NCBI GenBank assembly: GCA_964487475.1
Contig: CAZAPM010000010.1
Location: 3,005-67,004 of the forward strand
DNA from: an uncultured Planctomycetales bacterium
GTDB taxonomy: Bacteria; Omnitrophota; Gorgyraeia; Gygaellales; Profunditerraquicolaceae
Reading direction: 5' to 3'
DNA: 64,000 bases
The first letter of the stretch is position 1. Each line of letters begins with the position of its first letter. This document shows positions 18,498-28,863 of this stretch, in pieces. Position numbers and translations under genes: made by a program. The notes under the pieces were generated by a model. The model ran no database searches. It worked only from the letters and a program-made list of their open reading frames with translations, and was not told the origin of the DNA.

Positions 18498-19379
18498 ATG
18501 TTTACTTATCTCGCCATCGGTTTCGCGCTGCTCGGGGTAGCGATCATCCTGTTCGGTCTTTTCCTGTCCAAAGGTTCCAACGTTTCGCGTGCGGCGATGG
18601 ATGAAAGCACCGGGGTGATGGGGAAATCCGAGCCGGAGGGCGGGCTGGTGACAGTGCTTTCGCAGCGTATCGAAGCGCTGCAGAAGGAGAACGAGGTGGC
18701 GCTGCAGAGGCAGCAGGAAGCGCTGCGCTTGCTGGAGCAGGAGCGGGCCAAGAGCGCACAGCTGCAGGAGACCGTTTCCAAAGGCAGCGCGGAGCAGGGG
18801 GAGAGGGTATCCAAGTTGCTGGAAGAGGCGAAAGCCGAAGTCGCTTCCTGGAAGGAAAAGGTAGCGAATAAGGAAAAGGCCCTGGAGCGCGCGGCGTCCC
18901 TTAATGCCGATCTGAGCCGGGAATTGAGCGAGAAGACCGAGGCGTTCACCACACTGGAAGCCAGGAATAAAGCTCTGGAAGCGCAGGTCACGGAAGTGGA
19001 GACCGTGTTAGGGGACGCGAAATCCCAGGCCGCTGAGCTCGATACCGTGCTGCAGGAGATCAAGAAGAGATCCCAGGAGCCGGTCGTCGATACCAAGGCG
19101 GTCGAGGCGCTGCAGGCGCAGCTGAAAAAATCCCAGGAAGACGTGAAGCAGCTGGAAGAGGAGAAGAAGTCGCTCGCTACTTCACTTACCGAAATGAAGA
19201 AGCGTTTTGAATCCAAAGCGCAGGAGGCGGCAAAGGCCCAGGAGCTCGCCGCCGCGGCAAAGCAGGAAGCCGCCAAGGCCCCGGCCGTCAACTCCGTGCC
19301 CGAAGAGGAGTACCTGCGCATCAAGGAGAAGCTGGAAGCCGCAGAAAAGGTGCTGCGCATCATCCACGGCGCAGGGTAA
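18498..19379 (+). CDS. membrane-anchored coiled-coil protein
   Basis: N-terminal TM (IGFALLGVAIILFGLFL), then about 250 aa of heptad-rich E/K/A/Q sequence. Confidence 0.55.
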   Translation: MFTYLAIGFALLGVAIILFGLFLSKGSNVSRAAMDESTGVMGKSEPEGGLVTVLSQRIEALQKENEVALQRQQEALRLLEQERAKSAQLQETVSKGSAEQGERVSKLLEEAKAEVASWKEKVANKEKALERAASLNADLSRELSEKTEAFTTLEARNKALEAQVTEVETVLGDAKSQAAELDTVLQEIKKRSQEPVVDTKAVEALQAQLKKSQEDVKQLEEEKKSLATSLTEMKKRFESKAQEAAKAQELAAAAKQEAAKAPAVNSVPEEEYLRIKEKLEAAEKVLRIIHGAG

Positions 19380-21584: not shown

Positions 21585-21611
21585 TACCGATATAAGGAAA
21601 CCGTAACCATA

Positions 21612-21655
21612 AGAGCGCTCCGGGATCCGTCCCGGGGCGCTCTTTTTTGTGTTTT
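21612..21655 (+). terminator. rho-independent terminator after hppA
   Basis: GAGCGCTCCGGGATCCGTCCCGGGGCGCTC hairpin followed by TTTTTTGTGTTTTT. Confidence 0.7.
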
Positions 21656-21685
21656 TCCCCTTTAAAATACGATATAATAACCGGT

Positions 21686-22288
21686 ATGGACGACCTGGAG
21701 CTGATCAGGCGGTGCGCACAGGGCGACCAGGAAAGCCGTCAGCTGCTGGTGCGCACTTATTCTCCGGTAGTGGTAAGCGCGATAAGGTATACTTTTTCGC
21801 TGTATGCCGCGCAGCTGTGTTCCCGCCAGGATGTGCTGCAGGACCTCTGCCACGAGATATTCCTCAAGCTTTTCGACCAAGGGTGTAAAAGGCTGCTGAC
21901 CTTTACCGGCGCGTACGGCGCCAGCCTTTCCGGGTGGCTGCGCCATGTGGCGGCGAACCGGGCCGTTGACCATCTGCGCCGCATGCGGCCGCACCTTTCC
22001 CTGGACCAGGCGATAGGGGAAGGGTTTACCGTGGCCGATCTGATACCTGATCCGCAGGAATCAGTGCTTACGGCGGCGGAGCGCCTTGAGGAGCGGCAGC
22101 AATTGGCCGAGTGTATCGCGCAGCTGGATACTCTTTCCTTGTTCATCATCCGGGCGAACGTATTCGCCGGGGTGTGCGCCAGGGAGCTGGCGCTTCTGCT
22201 GGGCATATCCCGCGGCGCGTTCGATATGCGTAAATCGCGGATCATGGAAAAGCTGCGGGAGTGTTTCCGGAAGAAAGGTTTTCTGTGA
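21686..22288 (+). CDS. ECF-type RNA polymerase sigma factor (sigma-70 family)
   Basis: About 200 aa. Region 2 (LLVRTYSPVVVSAIRYTF...DLCHEIFLKLF) and region 4 HTH (ARELALLLGISRGAFDMRKSRIMEKLR). GATATAAT -10-like sequence upstream. Confidence 0.75.
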   Translation: MDDLELIRRCAQGDQESRQLLVRTYSPVVVSAIRYTFSLYAAQLCSRQDVLQDLCHEIFLKLFDQGCKRLLTFTGAYGASLSGWLRHVAANRAVDHLRRMRPHLSLDQAIGEGFTVADLIPDPQESVLTAAERLEERQQLAECIAQLDTLSLFIIRANVFAGVCARELALLLGISRGAFDMRKSRIMEKLRECFRKKGFL

Positions 22289-22327
22289 GCGCAGGCGTTG
22301 CGGTGCGTCTTAAGGGTGAGGTGGATC

Positions 22328-23050
22328 ATGGAAGATAAAAAATTCGCGGGGGTGCTGAAAAGGGCGGTTTCCTCCTGGCAGGAGGGGTTGGGTGCGCGCG
22401 CAGCGTCGCATCCTCCGGAGGAGCTCGTTGCCGCGTTCGCCGAAGGCAGGCTTCAGGGGAAGGATATGACCGAGGTCATGGCGCATCTTTGCGTGTGCGA
22501 CCTTTGCCTGGCGGGATATGCCGCAGCCCAGGGGGCCATTCATGAGCCTTTGGTCCAGGTCCCGGAAGCGCTCCGGCAGCGCCTGGATGCGCTGGCGAGG
22601 GACCCCTCTGCCGCAGGATTCGTGCCCAAGGCGTTCCATATTGCCATACTGCTCAAGGAAAAAGCCTTCGAGCTCCTTTCTGCGACGGGTGATGTGCTCG
22701 TGGGCCAGGAGTATGTGCCCGGTGCGCTGGTGCGCGGCAAGCATCAGGGGGATTTTCCCGATACGCTGGTGGTGGTCAAGGATATGGAGCGGGTACGCAT
22801 GAGCATTAAGTGCGAGGTGCGGGGCGGCAAAGACCTGGCGTTGACCGTGGAGGTCACCGAAAAAGAGACTGCCAGGCCCTGCGCGCACGCCCGCATCAGC
22901 CTGTGGCGTGAAGGGGTCGAGCTGGAGTCTCTGGCCTCGGACCGGGGTGCGGTGTCATTCGAGCATGTGGGCGCGGCACGGTATAATGTGCGTGCTGAGG
23001 CTCCTGCGGGTACCCTGGCAGGGGAAGTGTCTTTGGAGATCAGGGAGTGA
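22328..23050 (+). CDS. putative ZAS-type anti-sigma factor (HxxxCxxC)
   Basis: Immediately downstream of the ECF sigma. HLCVCDLC zinc-binding anti-sigma motif near the N-terminus. No TM. RBS GGGTGAGG. Confidence 0.55.
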   Translation: MEDKKFAGVLKRAVSSWQEGLGARAASHPPEELVAAFAEGRLQGKDMTEVMAHLCVCDLCLAGYAAAQGAIHEPLVQVPEALRQRLDALARDPSAAGFVPKAFHIAILLKEKAFELLSATGDVLVGQEYVPGALVRGKHQGDFPDTLVVVKDMERVRMSIKCEVRGGKDLALTVEVTEKETARPCAHARISLWREGVELESLASDRGAVSFEHVGAARYNVRAEAPAGTLAGEVSLEIRE

Positions 23051-25275
23051 GCATGCCGGGAAAAGACTCCGTATCCCGTCCGATGGTCTTGGAGGTGCTT
23101 TCCCAGGACCCCCGGCTGGCGATGAGCCTTTTCTTCCAGGATGAGTCGGGGCATACCGTGCGTTACTACCACCAGCGGCTGGTCGATCCCCGGCAGATGG
23201 AAAGTCTGAGCCGCGAAGTGACCGGCATCCTTTATAAATCCTACCTCGTCGGACCCCGTCAGGAGCACATCCAGAATTCCCTCAAGAAGGTCGGGCAGAT
23301 GATGTGGGACCATTTCCTTGCCCGGCAGGTGAAAGAGGAGCTGCTCGCGCAATCCGGGGGAGAGCTTTCCCTGGTGATCGACGAATCCCTGGTGCGGGTG
23401 CCCTGGGAGCTGATGTATGACGGGCAGGATTTTTTGTGCGTGAAATTCAGCGTAGGCCGGCTGGTGCGGGCTTCCCGCCAGGCCGAAGCGATCCGTTACC
23501 GGCAGATGCATACCTCTGCCCGTATGCTGGTGATCGCCAATCCGACCGGAGGGCTTCCCGCCGCGTACCAGGAAGGGGTGTGCATCCGTGATCAGCTCGA
23601 CGGCAAGCGCCGGGATATTTCCGTGGACCTGCGGGCGGAGGAGGCGGACAGTCTGTACCTGAAAAAGAACCTGCGCGACTATGATATCGTGCATTTTGCC
23701 GGGCACTGCGAATACGACACCACCCAGCCGCACCGCGCCGGATGGGCCTTGAAGGACGGACTGCTTAATTTCCAGGATGTGCTGATGATGGGGGAGGGCC
23801 GGACGGCGATGCCCTCGATCGTTTTCTCCAACGCCTGCCAGTCCGCGCAGGTGATGGAAACCGGGCCGGCGGCATTCGACCAGCAGCACCGCACCTACAG
23901 TTTCGCCTCCAGTTTCCTTTTTGCGGGAGTGCGGCATTATATCGGTACGGTCGGTAAGGTGGATGACCGGGCGAGTCTGAGTTTTGCCCTGGCGTTCTAC
24001 AAGGCGCTGGCCAAGGGAAAGGCTACCGGTGAATGCGTGCGGCAGGCGCGCATATCACTGATGCGCGAATACGGGACCGCCAATCTTGCCTGGGCCCAGT
24101 ACCTGATGTACGGCGATCCCGGCCATGTCCTCATCAAGAAGCTTCCTCCCAAAAAGAAACTGGCGCGTCATTTATCCGCTCCTCCGGGCTGGATGAAGAA
24201 AGCCGGGGTGGCGGCGGCAGCGGCGGCGGTGTTCGTGGCGGTCGCGGGATCGGTGCTGGCGCTCCGGCCGCAGGAGAGGATCCTTCTGGTAAGGGCGAAG
24301 ACATACCTTTCCCAGGGGAATAATCAGGAGGCGGTGGCGGCAGCGGAGATGATCACCGCCAGGCGGGCGGGGGCTCTGGCCGCGTATCCGGTGCTCTTCG
24401 AAGGGTATGTCCGGCTGGGGAAGAAGGAAAAGGCGCGGCAGGCGCTCATGGCCTATGCGCTGTTAAGCGAAAAACACCGCGCGTACGAGAACCTGGCAGA
24501 TGCCTATATCTCCCTGGGGTGGTTCCATTACCTGGGAGGAGAGTACGAGAAAGCCATGGCTTTCTATGAAAAAGCGTTATCCGTATCCCGGCAGCAGCAG
24601 GACCTCCTGCATGAGGCGGTCGCCCTGCGGCGCATGGCGGTATGGCACATCGATAAGGGGGATAACGGCAGGGCGCTGGAACTGCTTTCCCGAAGTGTGG
24701 AGATCCATTCCCGTTTCGCCAATGATCCGGAGCATCAGTATCACATGGCGTGCGCGTATTTCGACATGGGGCTGGTGTTCATCAATAAGAACGAATTCGA
24801 GGTCGCCAGGCAGTTCTACCGCAAGAGCGCGGAAGGTTTCCAGAAGTTGAAGCGGGACAACGAGCTCAGCGATTATTACTTCAATCTGGGGGAGATTTTC
24901 CTCTTCGAGAAGCAGTACCAAAAGGCGAAGGAGCATTATGCCGAGGGTTTGCGCATCGACCTGCTGCATGATAACCGGGCGAACCTGCCTTCCGATTACG
25001 TGATGATCGGGGAGCTGTCCTTTGAGATGGGGGATCTGGTCGAAGCGGAGCGCCATTTCCAGCTTGCGGTGCAGGCAGGCAAGCGGATCGATTCCCCGGC
25101 TGACCTGGCGCAGGCGTACCACGGACTGGGACGGATATACGCGAAAAAAAATCATATCTCCAAGGCTAGAGAGCACTTACGACTAGCGCAGGAACTCTAT
25201 TATTCCCTCGGTTTTCCGGAATATCAGCAGATCAAGGAGGAGTACGCGGGCCTGTCTTCAGCCGGCCGGCCTTGA
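23047..25275 (+). CDS. CHAT-domain (caspase-like) protein with a central TM helix and C-terminal TPR repeats
   Basis: CHAT His/Cys dyad contexts DIVHFAGHCEY and IVFSNACQSAQ. TM KKAGVAAAAAAVFVAVAGSVLAL. About 300 aa of TPR-like repeats. An alternative ATG at 23053 has a better RBS. Confidence 0.7.
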   Translation: MSMPGKDSVSRPMVLEVLSQDPRLAMSLFFQDESGHTVRYYHQRLVDPRQMESLSREVTGILYKSYLVGPRQEHIQNSLKKVGQMMWDHFLARQVKEELLAQSGGELSLVIDESLVRVPWELMYDGQDFLCVKFSVGRLVRASRQAEAIRYRQMHTSARMLVIANPTGGLPAAYQEGVCIRDQLDGKRRDISVDLRAEEADSLYLKKNLRDYDIVHFAGHCEYDTTQPHRAGWALKDGLLNFQDVLMMGEGRTAMPSIVFSNACQSAQVMETGPAAFDQQHRTYSFASSFLFAGVRHYIGTVGKVDDRASLSFALAFYKALAKGKATGECVRQARISLMREYGTANLAWAQYLMYGDPGHVLIKKLPPKKKLARHLSAPPGWMKKAGVAAAAAAVFVAVAGSVLALRPQERILLVRAKTYLSQGNNQEAVAAAEMITARRAGALAAYPVLFEGYVRLGKKEKARQALMAYALLSEKHRAYENLADAYISLGWFHYLGGEYEKAMAFYEKALSVSRQQQDLLHEAVALRRMAVWHIDKGDNGRALELLSRSVEIHSRFANDPEHQYHMACAYFDMGLVFINKNEFEVARQFYRKSAEGFQKLKRDNELSDYYFNLGEIFLFEKQYQKAKEHYAEGLRIDLLHDNRANLPSDYVMIGELSFEMGDLVEAERHFQLAVQAGKRIDSPADLAQAYHGLGRIYAKKNHISKAREHLRLAQELYYSLGFPEYQQIKEEYAGLSSAGRP

Positions 25276-25506: not shown

Positions 25507-25773
25507 ATGGAGCATACGGAAAAAGAGCAGAAGGTCCGCACGCATCGCGTGATCACCATGCTTGACCGCAAGGAGGTGGAGTTCCTTGATAAACTGGGCA
25601 AGGACGCGCTTTTTTCCACCGGCAGGAAGCTTTCCTATAATGATATCCTGCGCGGGCTGATCGATTTTGCGATGGAGGTGGGGGTCACCGGAGAGAAGGT
25701 CGATTCGGAGAAGGCCCTGAAGGACCAGATGCTCAGGCAACTGGGACAGGCAGGAAGCGGGAATCATAATTAA
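25507..25773 (+). CDS. small hypothetical protein, first gene of the riboswitch-controlled operon
   Basis: 88 aa. RBS GAAAGGGGG. No signal peptide. No recognised domain. Confidence 0.5.
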   Translation: MEHTEKEQKVRTHRVITMLDRKEVEFLDKLGKDALFSTGRKLSYNDILRGLIDFAMEVGVTGEKVDSEKALKDQMLRQLGQAGSGNHN

Positions 25774-25799: not shown

Positions 25800-26186
25800 A
25801 TGAGGAACAAGTTCATGATGGCGGTGTTGGCGTTATGCATGGCGGTACCGGTAATGGCGTGGGCAGGAGAGAACTTCGAGGCGTTCAACCTGGAAGAGAT
25901 CAATTACGAGAATTCCGCGGTGAACAAGCTGGGACGCGGCCTTATCAATACGGCGACGTTCTGGGTGGAGATCCCCGGCCGGGTGGCGCAGGTCTCTGCC
26001 GAGGAGAATCCGCTTTTGGGCGTGACCCTGGGCGGAGCGGAAGGGACGTTCAACGCCCTGGTGCGCGGCGTATCCGGAGTGTTCGATACGGTCACCTGTG
26101 CGTTCCCTCCGTATGACCAGCCGGTGGTGCTGCCGGAGTACGCGTTGAAGTCCGCGGATCAGCATCTGACGGAGTGGTTGTGGTAA
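25800..26186 (+). CDS. small secreted protein (signal peptide)
   Basis: MRNKFMMAVLALCMAVPVMAWAGE signal peptide. 128 aa. RBS AAGGAGGAAG. Confidence 0.55.
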   Translation: MRNKFMMAVLALCMAVPVMAWAGENFEAFNLEEINYENSAVNKLGRGLINTATFWVEIPGRVAQVSAEENPLLGVTLGGAEGTFNALVRGVSGVFDTVTCAFPPYDQPVVLPEYALKSADQHLTEWLW

Positions 26187-26239
26187 TGCGCATGTGAGAA
26201 AGTGCCGCCTCCTGCGTCTTAGGATGCAGGAGGTGGCAT

Positions 26240-27745
26240 ATGAAAAAAGGATTATTCGTAGCAGCGGTGTGGATGGTGTGTGCGGGCAGGGCCTGGGCAG
26301 GGGAGTATGCCTGGGAGGAACTTTCCGGAGTGCCTTCCTGTTATAGCGTGCAGGAGGATAAGGATTCCAGCCGCAGGGTGCTGGCAGGCGCGGCAGGCGG
26401 GGTGTACCTTTCCGAGGATGCGGGTATTGGCTTCCGTCAGGTTTTGCGGATATCCGGTTCCTCGGATAAGGATATCCGCGTACAGCAGGACCCGTTTGAT
26501 CTGCGGGTGTGGTATGCCGCGACGGGTTCCGGGTTGTACCGGAGCACGGATTCCGGACGGTCTTGGCAGCGTATCTTCAAGGGAGAGGCTGACGGTTCGG
26601 GGCGGGTGAATTCGGCGGGGGTCGTCCCCGGTTTTTTGTATGCGGCGACCGATGCCGGCCTGTTTCTAAGCCGCGACGGAGGCAGGCGATGGCAGCGGGA
26701 AGCGGGGGCCATCGGCACGCTGCCGGTCATTGCGGTCGCGGGATCGCTGGAGGCAGGGACGGCTATTTTGTGGGCGGTGGCCGCAGGGGAATTATACGTC
26801 TGTACCGCTCCCGGAGCAGGATGGTCGTGCGTAAAGCACCGGGAGGAGTCTTCCCCCTGGATCGAGGACCTGGTCCCGGGAAAGGGGCTGGGGGTGTATG
26901 CGGCGACTTCCCGCGGAGTATTCCTGGCAGAGGCGGCAGGGGGGATAAAATTTCAGCGGCTGGCGGTGTACGGACTGTTCTCTTTGGAGATGCGCCGGGT
27001 GTCATTCGATAAGGCGCAGGATACGCTTTATGCGTGCACCGGCTCGTCCGTATTCGTATATGATCGTGAGCGCTGGAAAGAGATAAGTTTCGAACTGCAG
27101 GCGGGGGAGGTACGCGGTATCTCTGCGGCTTCCTCCTTTGCGGTGTATGTCGCGGGGAGCAAGGGGTTGTTCAAGGCGAGCATCGTGCCGGAAACCTTCC
27201 GCGGGGAAATATCCGCGCAGGATCCGGTCCCCGGGATCGGTGAAGTGCAGCAGGCGGCGATCGCGTATGCGCAGGTGGATCCGGAGATGGTGGCGCGATG
27301 GCGAAGGCAGGCATCGGCCAAAGCCTGGATGCCGCAGTTATCCGTATCCTTTGCGCGCAACACCAGCGACCTTTGGCATTGGGAGAGCGGGTCGACCACC
27401 AAAAGCTGCGACGATGCCCTGATGCGGGGTAGGGATTCCCTGGATTGGGACGTGCGCGTAAGCTGGGACCTTGCCGAGGTGGTGTGGAACAAGGACCAGG
27501 CTTCCATCGATGCGCGGGCACGGTTGCTCTCGGACTTACGGGAACATCTGCTCGAAGAGGTGACCAGGCTTTATTATGAGCGCAAGAAGCTGCTGCAGGA
27601 TCCCGGGGGAGCCACCCTGGAGGCCAGGGCGGGAAAGAAGGCGGAGCAGGAGCTTAAGGTCGCTGAACTGACGGCTCTGCTGGACGGATATACCGGAGGA
27701 TTTTTTTCCGGGCGTTCCGTGCAAAAAGGTATCGAAAGGGATTGA
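26240..27745 (+). CDS. secreted BNR/Ycf48-like beta-propeller repeat protein with C-terminal coiled-coil region
   Basis: Signal peptide. Repeated SxDxGxxW motifs (LSEDAGIGF, STDSGRSWQ, SRDGGRRWQ). RBS GGAGG. Confidence 0.6.
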   Translation: MKKGLFVAAVWMVCAGRAWAGEYAWEELSGVPSCYSVQEDKDSSRRVLAGAAGGVYLSEDAGIGFRQVLRISGSSDKDIRVQQDPFDLRVWYAATGSGLYRSTDSGRSWQRIFKGEADGSGRVNSAGVVPGFLYAATDAGLFLSRDGGRRWQREAGAIGTLPVIAVAGSLEAGTAILWAVAAGELYVCTAPGAGWSCVKHREESSPWIEDLVPGKGLGVYAATSRGVFLAEAAGGIKFQRLAVYGLFSLEMRRVSFDKAQDTLYACTGSSVFVYDRERWKEISFELQAGEVRGISAASSFAVYVAGSKGLFKASIVPETFRGEISAQDPVPGIGEVQQAAIAYAQVDPEMVARWRRQASAKAWMPQLSVSFARNTSDLWHWESGSTTKSCDDALMRGRDSLDWDVRVSWDLAEVVWNKDQASIDARARLLSDLREHLLEEVTRLYYERKKLLQDPGGATLEARAGKKAEQELKVAELTALLDGYTGGFFSGRSVQKGIERD

Positions 27746-27747
27746 TC

Positions 27748-28863
27748 ATGGAATTCGATCTGCTTTCTCTGGTGTTTATGATTACCCAGGCGGTCACTGC
27801 CGTGATCGCCATAGTGTGGCTGCTTCTGCATGGCCGCCGCCAGTCCGATCAATCAAAGGTAAGCCAGCTGCAGGAGGCGCTTGCGGCCAAGGAAGCGGAG
27901 CTCGCGTGTCTTCTCAGTAATCAGGAGAAGTCCCGTCAGGAGGCATGCCGCCGCGCTTCGTTGCAGCCACAGGCACCGTCGCAACCTTTGCCAAAACGGT
28001 CTGCGGTCCCTGACGTTCCTGACGGAGGGAAGGATAAAAAGATCGGGGAGATACTTCTGGAGCATCATTTCATCGTTAAGGACATCCTGGACAGGGCGCT
28101 GGAGCATCAAGTGCAGCACGGAGGAACGATCACGCAGTATCTGCTTGCCTACGGGTATATCGATGAAAGCCAGTTGGCCAAGTGCCTTTGCTCCCAGTTT
28201 AAGATACCGTACCTGCCCCTTTCTTCATGCGATATCCCGGAGCGGGTGATAAAACTCCTTCCGGTCGATATCGCGGAAAAATACCTGGCCATACCCGTGG
28301 ACCAGGCCGGGGATTCATTGATGGTGGTGATGGCCGATCCTTTGGACCCCAAAGCGCTGGCTACGATAAAGAAGGTGACCGGGTGTACGTTAAAGCCTTT
28401 TGTGGGAATACTTTCCGAGATAGTGGGAGCCCTGGAGACGTATTATCATGTGAATATCCGCGGCGCAGCCTCATCCAAGAGCGCATATCCTTTCGTAGTC
28501 GAGTCTCCTAACTTCCGGGGTATCGAGCGTCGGGAGGCGATACGCTTCAAGTGCGAGATGGATGTGCAGGTCCCGATAAAAGGTATCTATCAGAGCCAGA
28601 AGACTAAGGACATCAGCCGCGACGGATTTTGCTTCGAATCTGATTGCGCGCCACCCATGGGGTCGATCCTTACCATGGAAGTGTATCTGCCGAAAGAATT
28701 TAGCTCACTTCCCATCAGGGCGCTGGTGCAGGTGGTGCGTATCCTGGAACGGGGAGAACACCGATATGAGATAGGCGTTAAGACCGTGGAGATCGCAAAG
28801 CATGACCTGGCGGCCATCATTAATTACGCTTCCAGCAAGATGTTGGGAGAAAAAAAGGGATAA
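27748..28863 (+). CDS. membrane-anchored MshEN-domain plus PilZ-domain protein (putative c-di-GMP receptor)
   Basis: N-terminal TM. MshEN motif KIGEILLEHHFIVKDILDRALEHQ plus a second GspE-N-like repeat. C-terminal PilZ motifs RREAIR (RxxxR) and DISRDG (DxSxxG). Confidence 0.7.
   Translation: MEFDLLSLVFMITQAVTAVIAIVWLLLHGRRQSDQSKVSQLQEALAAKEAELACLLSNQEKSRQEACRRASLQPQAPSQPLPKRSAVPDVPDGGKDKKIGEILLEHHFIVKDILDRALEHQVQHGGTITQYLLAYGYIDESQLAKCLCSQFKIPYLPLSSCDIPERVIKLLPVDIAEKYLAIPVDQAGDSLMVVMADPLDPKALATIKKVTGCTLKPFVGILSEIVGALETYYHVNIRGAASSKSAYPFVVESPNFRGIERREAIRFKCEMDVQVPIKGIYQSQKTKDISRDGFCFESDCAPPMGSILTMEVYLPKEFSSLPIRALVQVVRILERGEHRYEIGVKTVEIAKHDLAAIINYASSKMLGEKKG

Follow-up and report, generated by a model that had tools for sequence, protein, structure and literature searches.

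Sigma factors of the extracytoplasmic function (ECF) type form a major route of signal transduction in bacteria, and few ways are known in which they are released from their anti-sigma factors. In the canonical pathways of regulated intramembrane proteolysis (RseA/DegS/RseP and RsiW/PrsW/RasP), an extracytoplasmic signal leads to proteolysis of the anti-sigma factor and thus to release of the ECF sigma factor; these anti-sigma factors are single-pass membrane proteins, which are cut in sequence by site-1 and site-2 proteases. Here we describe a cassette of three genes at positions 21686-25275 of a 64,000-nt stretch of contig CAZAPM010000010.1 (assembly GCA_964487475.1, Omnitrophota), which encodes an ECF-type sigma factor, a predicted soluble zinc anti-sigma factor and a membrane-anchored, caspase-like CHAT protein with tetratricopeptide repeats (TPRs). 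The whole stretch is called the window; all coordinates are positions in the window, and protein positions are those of its copy. In the reading that we prefer, and to which we give a probability of roughly 0.55, the membrane CHAT protease frees the sigma factor by cleaving the soluble anti-sigma factor, as an earlier note on this DNA had proposed.

A link between CHAT domains and sigma factors has come to light only recently, and so far only in CRISPR or defence settings, namely in Craspase and in DdvA, where the proteolysis is hypothetical. Craspase is the closest system functionally, with a caspase-like CHAT protease bearing TPRs, a soluble sigma inhibitor and a sigma factor of ECF-like type: the N-terminal domain of Csx30 keeps the ECF-like CASP-sigma bound and inhibited, and cleavage of Csx30 by Csx29 (TPR-CHAT) lifts the inhibition (PMC10028731). 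However, Csx29 is soluble, has its TPRs before the CHAT domain and is switched on when target RNA is bound to Cas7-11, whereas the CHAT protein of the cassette has the order CHAT, transmembrane (TM) helix, TPR and is membrane-anchored with its TPRs predicted outside, and the putative inhibitor is a 240-aa protein of the zinc-binding anti-sigma (ZAS) type with an immunoglobulin (Ig)-like domain. No Cas7-11, Csx31 or CRISPR array was found near the cassette, either in the neighbourhood within the window or in the loci inspected.

The closest system architecturally is DdvS/DdvA of Myxococcus xanthus, which comprises an ECF sigma factor, a CHCC/HHCC zinc anti-sigma domain, TPRs, a CHAT domain with a His/Cys dyad, and one TM helix. 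DdvA is a single chain of cytoplasmic ZAS domain, TM helix and periplasmic TPR-CHAT (PMC11506125, PMC6061681). Its proposed activation consists of a cut by CHAT in its own linker followed by intramembrane cleavage by RseP, and DdvA-like fused proteins have been reported only in Myxococcota and one Comamonas (PMC11506125). In the cassette, by contrast, the anti-sigma factor forms a soluble protein of its own, CHAT is predicted to be cytoplasmic (the reverse topology), the TPRs alone would lie outside, and no site-2 step would be needed. DdvS controls a CBASS/CRISPR island, whereas the target linked to the cassette is a secreted BNR propeller.

Two further systems bear comparison. According to a preprint (bioRxiv 10.1101/2024.05.08.593097), CalpL/CalpT/CalpS likewise encodes together a signal-activated cytoplasmic protease, a soluble anti-sigma factor and a sigma factor of ECF-like type, but CalpL is a Lon-type protease that cyclic oligoadenylate switches on by way of a SAVED domain and that is linked to type III CRISPR, rather than a membrane CHAT protein with an extracytoplasmic sensor. 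The actinobacterial group ECF54, as summarised in a review (PMC8999054, citing Huang 2015 and Casas-Pastor 2021), has CHAT, "carboxypeptidase", subtilase and 4Fe-4S proteins in its genetic context, and proteolytic control has been proposed for it; the presence of CHAT is a likeness, and weak CarboxypepD_reg matches of the middle protein of the cassette parallel the "carboxypeptidase". ECF54 is nevertheless described as actinobacterial and as lacking an anti-sigma factor, and this comparison is by description only. The earlier note had raised the question of a CHAT-associated ECF group in classification resources: ECF54 in the review answers to it, whereas the main text of the classification paper makes no mention of CHAT.

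In relation to the canonical pathways, the anti-sigma factor of the cassette has no TM segment, the receptor itself would carry the protease across the membrane, and one cytoplasmic cut would suffice. In short, the cassette would work like a Craspase-type switch, in which a protease frees the sigma factor from its inhibitor, but is a distinct, membrane-spanning, non-CRISPR variant, with a topology inverted relative to DdvA and an unusual promoter wiring. The arrangement is thus uncommon, as the earlier note had held, although it is not without precedents (Craspase, PMC10028731; DdvA, PMC11506125). Protease-controlled sigma switches are known, and this variant has not been previously described within the literature searched; literature on Omnitrophota or Omnitrophica with CHAT, ECF, sigma factor or caspase yielded no description of the cassette, which, coverage being incomplete, is absence of evidence only.

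Gene order and its conservation

The three open reading frames (ORFs) are consecutive on the + strand. They encode a 200-aa ECF-type sigma factor (21686-22288), a 240-aa soluble middle protein taken as the anti-sigma factor on the basis of profile matches, its AlphaFold2 (AF2) model and synteny (22328-23050), and a 742-aa CHAT-TM-TPR protein, the putative receptor-protease, recognised by Pfam CHAT, TPR families and its AF2 model (23047-25275). The first two genes are separated by 39 nt and the last two overlap by 4 bp (GTGA), so that the tight or overlapping junctions described earlier are borne out. The start of the sigma gene at ATG 21686 is backed by a -10 box that ends 7 nt ahead of it and by the alignment of homologues. 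As the start of the middle gene, TTG 22298 was rejected in favour of ATG 22328 on the basis of homologue alignment, a Shine-Dalgarno sequence and the promoter position. Public gene calls start the CHAT gene at ATG 23053, six bases past 23047, a difference of no consequence. At its 5' side the cassette is bounded by an intrinsic terminator with a 15-bp stem and a T-run (21611-21644, + strand; terminator scan and sequence), which ends the upstream H+-pyrophosphatase (H+-PPase) gene, and many loci have an equivalent hairpin upstream of their sigma gene.

A species scan, with one genome per species, gave at least 531 genomes with a confirmed relative of the CHAT module, and the locus counts were taken from the best 80 of at least 531 loci, nearly all in Omnitrophota metagenome-assembled genomes. 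In this census, which used hidden Markov models built from the seed proteins and in which loci with enough upstream DNA were counted as informative, the sigma gene was present in 73 of the 73 informative loci and the middle gene in 77 of 77, and at every informative locus the ordered trio lay on a single strand. Four seeming exceptions were N-masked stretches, in which the genes were recovered by tblastn. The gap between the sigma and middle genes is usually about 35 nt across loci, and the middle and CHAT genes are usually separated by about 5 nt or overlap by 4 nt, a closeness that points to co-translation of these two. In an exact-protein look-up of eight diverse members, seven of the eight places, the degraded copy in L005 among them, had the trio complete, with a gene of 211-255 aa in the middle; the eighth (L004) has the middle and CHAT genes and no adjacent sigma gene. 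This arrangement is far beyond chance, and the three genes almost certainly constitute one functional sigma/anti-sigma/CHAT module. The earlier proposal had been made dependent on conserved synteny, which was found across about 80 genomes essentially without exception, and also in more distant branches.

In the protein collection, 109 clusters were related to the CHAT module (aa 1-408). Those nearest to it, at 40-48% identity, are CHAT-TPR proteins some 710-740 aa long from Candidatus Omnitrophota, and distant ones bear DUF4384 or other C-terminal domains, with Desulfobacterales or Myxococcales as the named sources. The C-terminal module is thus exchanged (TPR, DUF4384 or other) after the same CHAT-TM core while the partner genes are retained, and a swappable C-terminus on a fixed core fits a division of labour between sensor and effector. 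From its synteny, the window would belong to the Omnitrophota or to a close relative. The G+C content of the window is 60% and its identity to any representative is at most 50%, which suggests that it comes from a divergent lineage. The H+-PPase gene lies upstream of the cassette in 39 loci and a BNR/Sortilin-like gene downstream in 40, and this fixed context argues for vertical inheritance rather than for a mobile island.

Two loci of a distant branch differ in detail. The copy in L005 looks degraded, with a middle gene truncated to 134 aa, a 410-nt gap and an altered sigma C-terminus. In both L004 (8468-12665) and L005 (7797-13744), extra TPR-CHAT paralogues and DUF4384 proteins are clustered just downstream of the cassette.

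The predicted anti-sigma factor

The middle protein contains H53-LCV-C57-DL-C60, which fits the HxxxCxxC motif. In two alignments, A2 (78 sequences) and A4 (126 cluster representatives), H53, C57 and C60 are kept in 77 of 78 and in at least 122 of 126 sequences, respectively, and 120 of the 126 sequences of A4 have His (72) or Cys (48) at position 28, an alternation that is expected of a metal ligand. The putative zinc ligands are therefore H28, H53, C57 and C60 (H/C-x24-H-x3-C-x2-C; 22409-22507, + strand, by conservation), with the spacing of the zinc anti-sigma domains of the ChrR/DdvA type. The match to zf-HC2 is weak in the window (16.2 bits; cut-off 22.2) and reaches 22.4 bits in the homologue from L006. 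When the A2 profile was compared with PDB, the top-ranked matches were the DdvA N-terminus (8rlz_A, E = 1.5e-3), RsiW, RslA, full-length DdvA, ChrR and RsrA, these matches to anti-sigma domains being weak (E = 1.5e-3 to 0.6); the Csx30 chain was absent among the PDB matches of this profile. No segment of TM grade was found in the middle protein, whose best 19-residue Kyte-Doolittle window is 1.38 (family median of the best window, 1.07). The identification of the second gene as a soluble zinc anti-sigma type with HxxxCxxC agrees with the motif and with the lack of a TM segment, and the protein is predicted to be a ZAS-type anti-sigma factor. An exhaustive search of representatives yielded 499 clusters of middle proteins at E <= 1e-10, so that it is a sizeable family, so far unnamed.

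The AF2 model of this protein (mean predicted local distance difference test score, pLDDT, 90.1) consists of a helical domain (aa 2-91; helices 2-21, 31-38, 44-56, 58-71 and 80-91, mostly at pLDDT values over 85), then a flexible linker (about 92-102) and an Ig-like beta-sandwich region (103-240), whose structural neighbours are generic Ig/fn3-like folds only. Conservation peaks not in the presumed sigma-binding domain but at aa 118-145 (22679-22762, + strand), where the consensus is TTGDVLVGQELxPAPVLR/SRxIKDFKD (the slash marks the candidate cut). R136 (codon 22733-22735) is found in 78 of the 78 sequences of A2 and in 125 of the 126 of A4, and the loop 132-145 lies between strands with lowered pLDDT (67 for the block 131-140).

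This loop is a plausible candidate for the site at which CHAT recognises and cleaves the anti-sigma factor, since it presents an invariant basic residue in an exposed position of a protein that is always encoded together with a clan-CD protease and would share its compartment. Enzymes of clan CD are generally strict in P1 specificity, and gingipain R and metacaspases use Arg at this position. Separase likewise cuts after Arg, and Csx29 after Met or Leu (PMC11506125). Some distant members of the CHAT family exceed the Pfam threshold for Peptidase_C25, the family of the Arg/Lys-specific gingipains, which is in keeping with Arg at P1.

A ligand set (H/C-H-C-C) that is complete and strongly conserved, together with the presence of the soluble ZAS anti-sigma factor RsrA among the PDB matches, would also suit a different scheme, in which the anti-sigma factor releases the sigma factor upon oxidation of its zinc-thiolate centre, like RsrA, and CHAT is a co-transcribed target that has other substrates or degrades the sigma factor to end the response; the CHAT gene lies downstream of an ECF-type promoter and is formally such a target. 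We consider this scheme unlikely. ChrR, RslA and RsiW, whose ZAS domains were matched as well, are not known to be redox switches. Nor would redox release explain why the R136 loop and the Ig-like domain outrank the sigma-binding domain in conservation, why translational coupling of the anti-sigma and CHAT genes is near-universal, or why this pair persists while the sensor domain is swapped. In addition, HxxxCxxC has been lost from the distant homologue in L003 (5333-6004), yet the synteny and the remainder of the protein, linker Arg and Ig-like domain included, are kept, which hints that zinc binding may be dispensable for the core function. Cleavage of the anti-sigma factor by CHAT remains the reading that we prefer.

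The CHAT-TM-TPR protein

The Pfam CHAT domain (PF12770) matches aa 81-357 of the third protein with 122.5 bits (E = 3e-35; 23287-24117, + strand), and its dyad consists of H220 in HFAGH (codon 23704-23706) and C264 in SNAC (codon 23836-23838). Alignments of 36 and of 53 divergent members show no variation at H216, H220 and C264, nor at about 20 other core positions, so that the conservation of the catalytic residues on which the earlier proposal had been made to depend is confirmed. The domain is followed by a single TM helix (aa 382-403; 24190-24255, + strand; AF2), preceded by a basic linker (KKLPPKKKLARH...MKK), and by a TPR superhelix of about 16 helices (aa 408-739; 24268-25263, + strand), which is supported by Pfam, AF2 and fold matches; Pfam TPR_12, TPR_2, TPR_8 and TPR_1 match across aa 410-720. 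The length of 742 aa, the HFAGH...SNAC dyad, the one TM helix and the TPRs are as the earlier note had described them. The AlphaFold model of the protein (mean pLDDT 90.3) shows a beta/alpha subdomain (13-100), a confident caspase-like core (105-355) and a low-confidence basic linker before the TM helix. Foldseek matches were mostly to TPR proteins, and the best CHAT-containing solved structures were those of Csx29/TPR-CHAT (8eex_B, 7y8t_B and 7zoq_A; TMq 0.32-0.34), whereas the CHAT profile gave one weak match only (8tl0_A) against PDB sequences.

The topology is shared by the family. In 77 of 82 family members the CHAT domain is immediately followed by a single hydrophobic segment, at about aa 377, and a signal-peptide-like N-terminus was found in none of the 82. 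In the same 82 members the 15 residues before the TM helix contain on average 5.5 Lys or Arg, and those after it 1.6. By the positive-inside rule, the CHAT domain is predicted to be cytoplasmic, along with the TM-less anti-sigma factor, and the C-terminal sensor to be extracytoplasmic (periplasmic), which is the topology that the proposed mechanism requires. The wider basic linker of the protein in the window agrees with that of the family. The role of the TPR superhelix as the sensor is presumed.

Separase-securin inhibition and the in-trans autoproteolysis proposed for DdvA (PMC11506125) are precedents for another role of TPR-CHAT, which would involve no proteolysis of the anti-sigma factor: the Ig-like domain and the R136 loop could dock in the CHAT site as a securin-like pseudosubstrate and tether the sigma complex to the membrane, from which a signal at the TPRs would release it uncut or by which it would be re-captured, or else CHAT could cut itself as proposed for DdvA. 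The co-conservation of the two proteins fits binding alone equally well, and a disordered loop (aa 271-283; AF2), directly after the catalytic Cys, lies at the position of the inter-subunit linker of caspases. The consensus of that loop, however, has no conserved basic residue, and the invariant dyad and many invariant core residues in very divergent members argue that catalysis has probably been retained. In Craspase, moreover, a CHAT protease does cleave a sigma inhibitor (PMC10028731). On balance we regard such a scaffold as improbable, rather more so than redox release, and keep to cleavage of the anti-sigma factor.

The sigma factor and its promoters

The first protein matches TIGR02937 (sigma70-ECF) with 64.4 bits (E = 9e-18), over the cut-off of 42.9, and Pfam Sigma70_r2 with 25.4 bits, over that of 24; its 15 bits against Sigma70_r4_2 stay under the cut-off of 25.7. 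It holds regions sigma-2 and sigma-4 only, as do ECF (group IV) sigma factors, in accordance with its earlier identification. Its score against the type III-E model NF041236 (CAS_III-E_sigma) was 26.8 bits, far below the cut-off of 100, and a phmmer search against PDB sequences gave nothing at E <= 1e-3.

The promoter of the sigma gene appears to be of the housekeeping kind. A sigma-70-type -10 box, TATAAT (21673-21678, + strand), ends 7 nt before the ATG, and such a box (with at most one mismatch) ends 6-10 nt before the sigma start in 60 of 69 loci of the Omnitrophota type, compared with 2.6% at random positions. Its extension reads cGaTATAAT in the window and TGnTATAAT in most homologues; a TG extension was counted on 54 of the sigma-gene -10 boxes, all spacings included. 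A -10 box so near the start codon predicts a leaderless or near-leaderless transcript. An ECF-type autoregulatory promoter was sought upstream of the sigma gene across the loci and was not found, the extended -10 box standing there instead; the ECF-type motif lies downstream of the sigma coding region, and positive autoregulation of the sigma gene is thus not indicated. Expression of the sigma factor is accordingly predicted, from these patterns, to be constitutive, leaderless and not autoregulated, which would be an unusual wiring for an ECF system.

An ECF-type promoter motif with the consensus GTTAGA-N15-CGTCTA, comprising a conserved -35 element and a -10 element of the CGTC type, is embedded in the cassette. 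In 63 of 78 loci its strict form, GTTAGATT-N13-CGTCTATT, stands shortly before the middle gene, at the 3' end of the sigma gene, and in about 0.8 Mb of loci the strict form has 112 matches, compared with 0.4 expected; 64 of these stand before the anti-sigma gene, 35 before the BNR gene, five before an IS200/RayT-like gene and two elsewhere. The window has two copies at positions homologous to those of the family motif. The first, P1 (GTGAGC-N15-CGTCT, in full GTGAGC-N15-CGTCTTAAG; 22285-22310, + strand), overlaps the sigma stop codon, ends 17 nt upstream of the anti-sigma ATG and should drive the anti-sigma and CHAT genes. The second, P2 (GTGAGA-N15-CGTCT, in full GTGAGA-N15-CGTCTTAGG; 26194-26219, + strand), lies 20 nt upstream of a BNR-like gene. 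Both depart from the family consensus in the same manner, with GTGAG for GTTAG and CGTCTTA for CGTCTAT. No further copies stood out in the window, where matches with two mismatches numbered five against 9.3 expected. From the embedding of the motif in the cassette, we infer that this sigma factor reads GTTAGA-N15-CGTCTA promoters.

The gene behind P2 (26240-27745, + strand) encodes a secreted BNR/Asp-box beta-propeller of 501 aa with an N-terminal signal sequence. Its family matches are weak (Sortilin-Vps10/BNR and F510_1955), as are its PDB matches (BNR glycosyl hydrolases and Ycf48/HCF136), and its C-terminal part of about 150 aa gave no family match. In the 40 loci that have it, the gene lies 54 nt to 3.5 kb downstream of the cassette. 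It is a putative member of the regulon and the only conserved candidate output gene.

In five loci the ECF-type motif is also found on the opposite strand, divergent from the sigma gene and upstream of an IS200/RayT-like (Y1 transposase-like) gene (L012 3496-3520, L015 3516-3540, L016 3466-3490, L017 206-230 and L048 3471-3495, all on the - strand). This gene may be a domesticated or co-opted transposase under the same sigma factor.

Proposed mechanism

In the mechanism that we propose, the ECF sigma factor would be made constitutively from its housekeeping-type, leaderless promoter and kept inactive by the soluble anti-sigma factor of the zinc-binding type, whose helical domain at the N-terminus would bind the sigma factor while the Ig-like region bears the exposed loop. 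The CHAT protein would act as a single-pass membrane receptor-protease, with periplasmic TPRs that bind a ligand, probably a protein or peptide, and with the CHAT domain facing the cytoplasm. Binding of the ligand would cause an oligomeric or conformational change, probably transmitted through the single TM helix, and so render the His220/Cys264 dyad active. The dyad would then cut the anti-sigma factor, most likely after Arg136 in P-x-x-[VL]-L-R/[SG]-[RK], and loss or degradation of the cut anti-sigma factor would free the sigma factor. The freed sigma factor would transcribe the GTTAGA-N15-CGTCTA promoters, namely those of the anti-sigma and CHAT genes (feedback and reset) and of the BNR gene (output).

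Several points weigh against this mechanism. The link between CHAT and the anti-sigma factor is inferred from sequence, and the CHAT gene, standing behind an ECF-type promoter, could be a target of the sigma factor and not its regulator. R136 could be a structural residue, or a residue in contact with the sigma factor or CHAT, rather than scissile; known CHAT proteases vary in specificity, and Arg at P1 is only a guess. The promoter motif is assigned to this sigma factor by linkage only. Finally, the charge bias around the TM helix is weaker in the window than in the family, with three Lys or Arg in the 15 residues before the helix and four in those after it.

A third possibility, that the cassette is a conflict or anti-phage system in which CHAT is an abortive-infection effector or defence regulator and the sigma factor turns on defence genes, was rejected as very improbable, because, although CHAT domains often occur in defence contexts, the two characterised CHAT systems with a sigma link (DdvA and Craspase) are tied to defence and the sigma factor weakly matches NF041236, that score is far under its cut-off, PADLOC matched nothing beyond generic TPRs, no cas, CBASS or other defence genes lie beside the cassette in the window and the loci inspected, the stable housekeeping context on the chromosome (H+-PPase in 39 loci, BNR in 40) points to a vertically inherited core function, and conserved promoter targets were found only in the cassette itself and at the secreted beta-propeller.

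Neighbouring genes

Between the CHAT and BNR genes of the window there are an 88-aa ORF (25507-25773) and a gene for a small secreted protein of TIGR04073, "exosortase system-associated" (25800-26186), and both occupy the same relative position in seven other loci. The BNR gene is overlapped at its end by 4 bp by a gene (27742-28863) for a protein with MshEN (binding cyclic di-GMP) and PilZ domains, which is kept in one other locus only and suggests an input of cyclic di-GMP in the neighbourhood of the cassette. On the other side, just upstream of the H+-PPase gene, a 293-aa protein (18498-19379) combines a single hydrophobic segment at its N-terminus with a long region that is rich in Ala, Glu and Lys and resembles a coiled coil; a family search with this protein gave no significant match.

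Conclusions

We suggest, tentatively, that the cassette could be the first example of a new class of transmembrane signalling devices that act in one step. In such a device the swappable extracytoplasmic sensor of a single-pass "receptor caspase" (TPRs in Omnitrophota, DUF4384 or other domains elsewhere) would directly switch on the cytoplasmic CHAT protease, which would clip a soluble zinc anti-sigma factor at an invariant Arg and so bypass the relay of site-1 and site-2 proteases. In Omnitrophota this device would be a vertically inherited core circuit beside the H+-PPase gene, with a constitutive, leaderless sigma factor and a sigma-induced anti-sigma factor and protease, and it would control a secreted beta-propeller, which may be involved in envelope or host-cell interaction. 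If true, this phylum-wide, chromosomally fixed version outside defence would broaden the principle known from Craspase and DdvA, in that the protease is itself the receptor, acts on the cytoplasmic side and has a separate soluble anti-sigma factor as its substrate.

The system is compact, consisting of three proteins with a defined promoter (GTTAGA-N15-CGTCTA) and a candidate cleavage site (R136), and should lend itself to reconstitution in E. coli. For synthetic biology, it points to a modular protease-receptor scaffold in which an external ligand would trigger orthogonal sigma/promoter pairs. For the Omnitrophota, which are largely uncultured, the cassette would offer a first handle on gene regulation.

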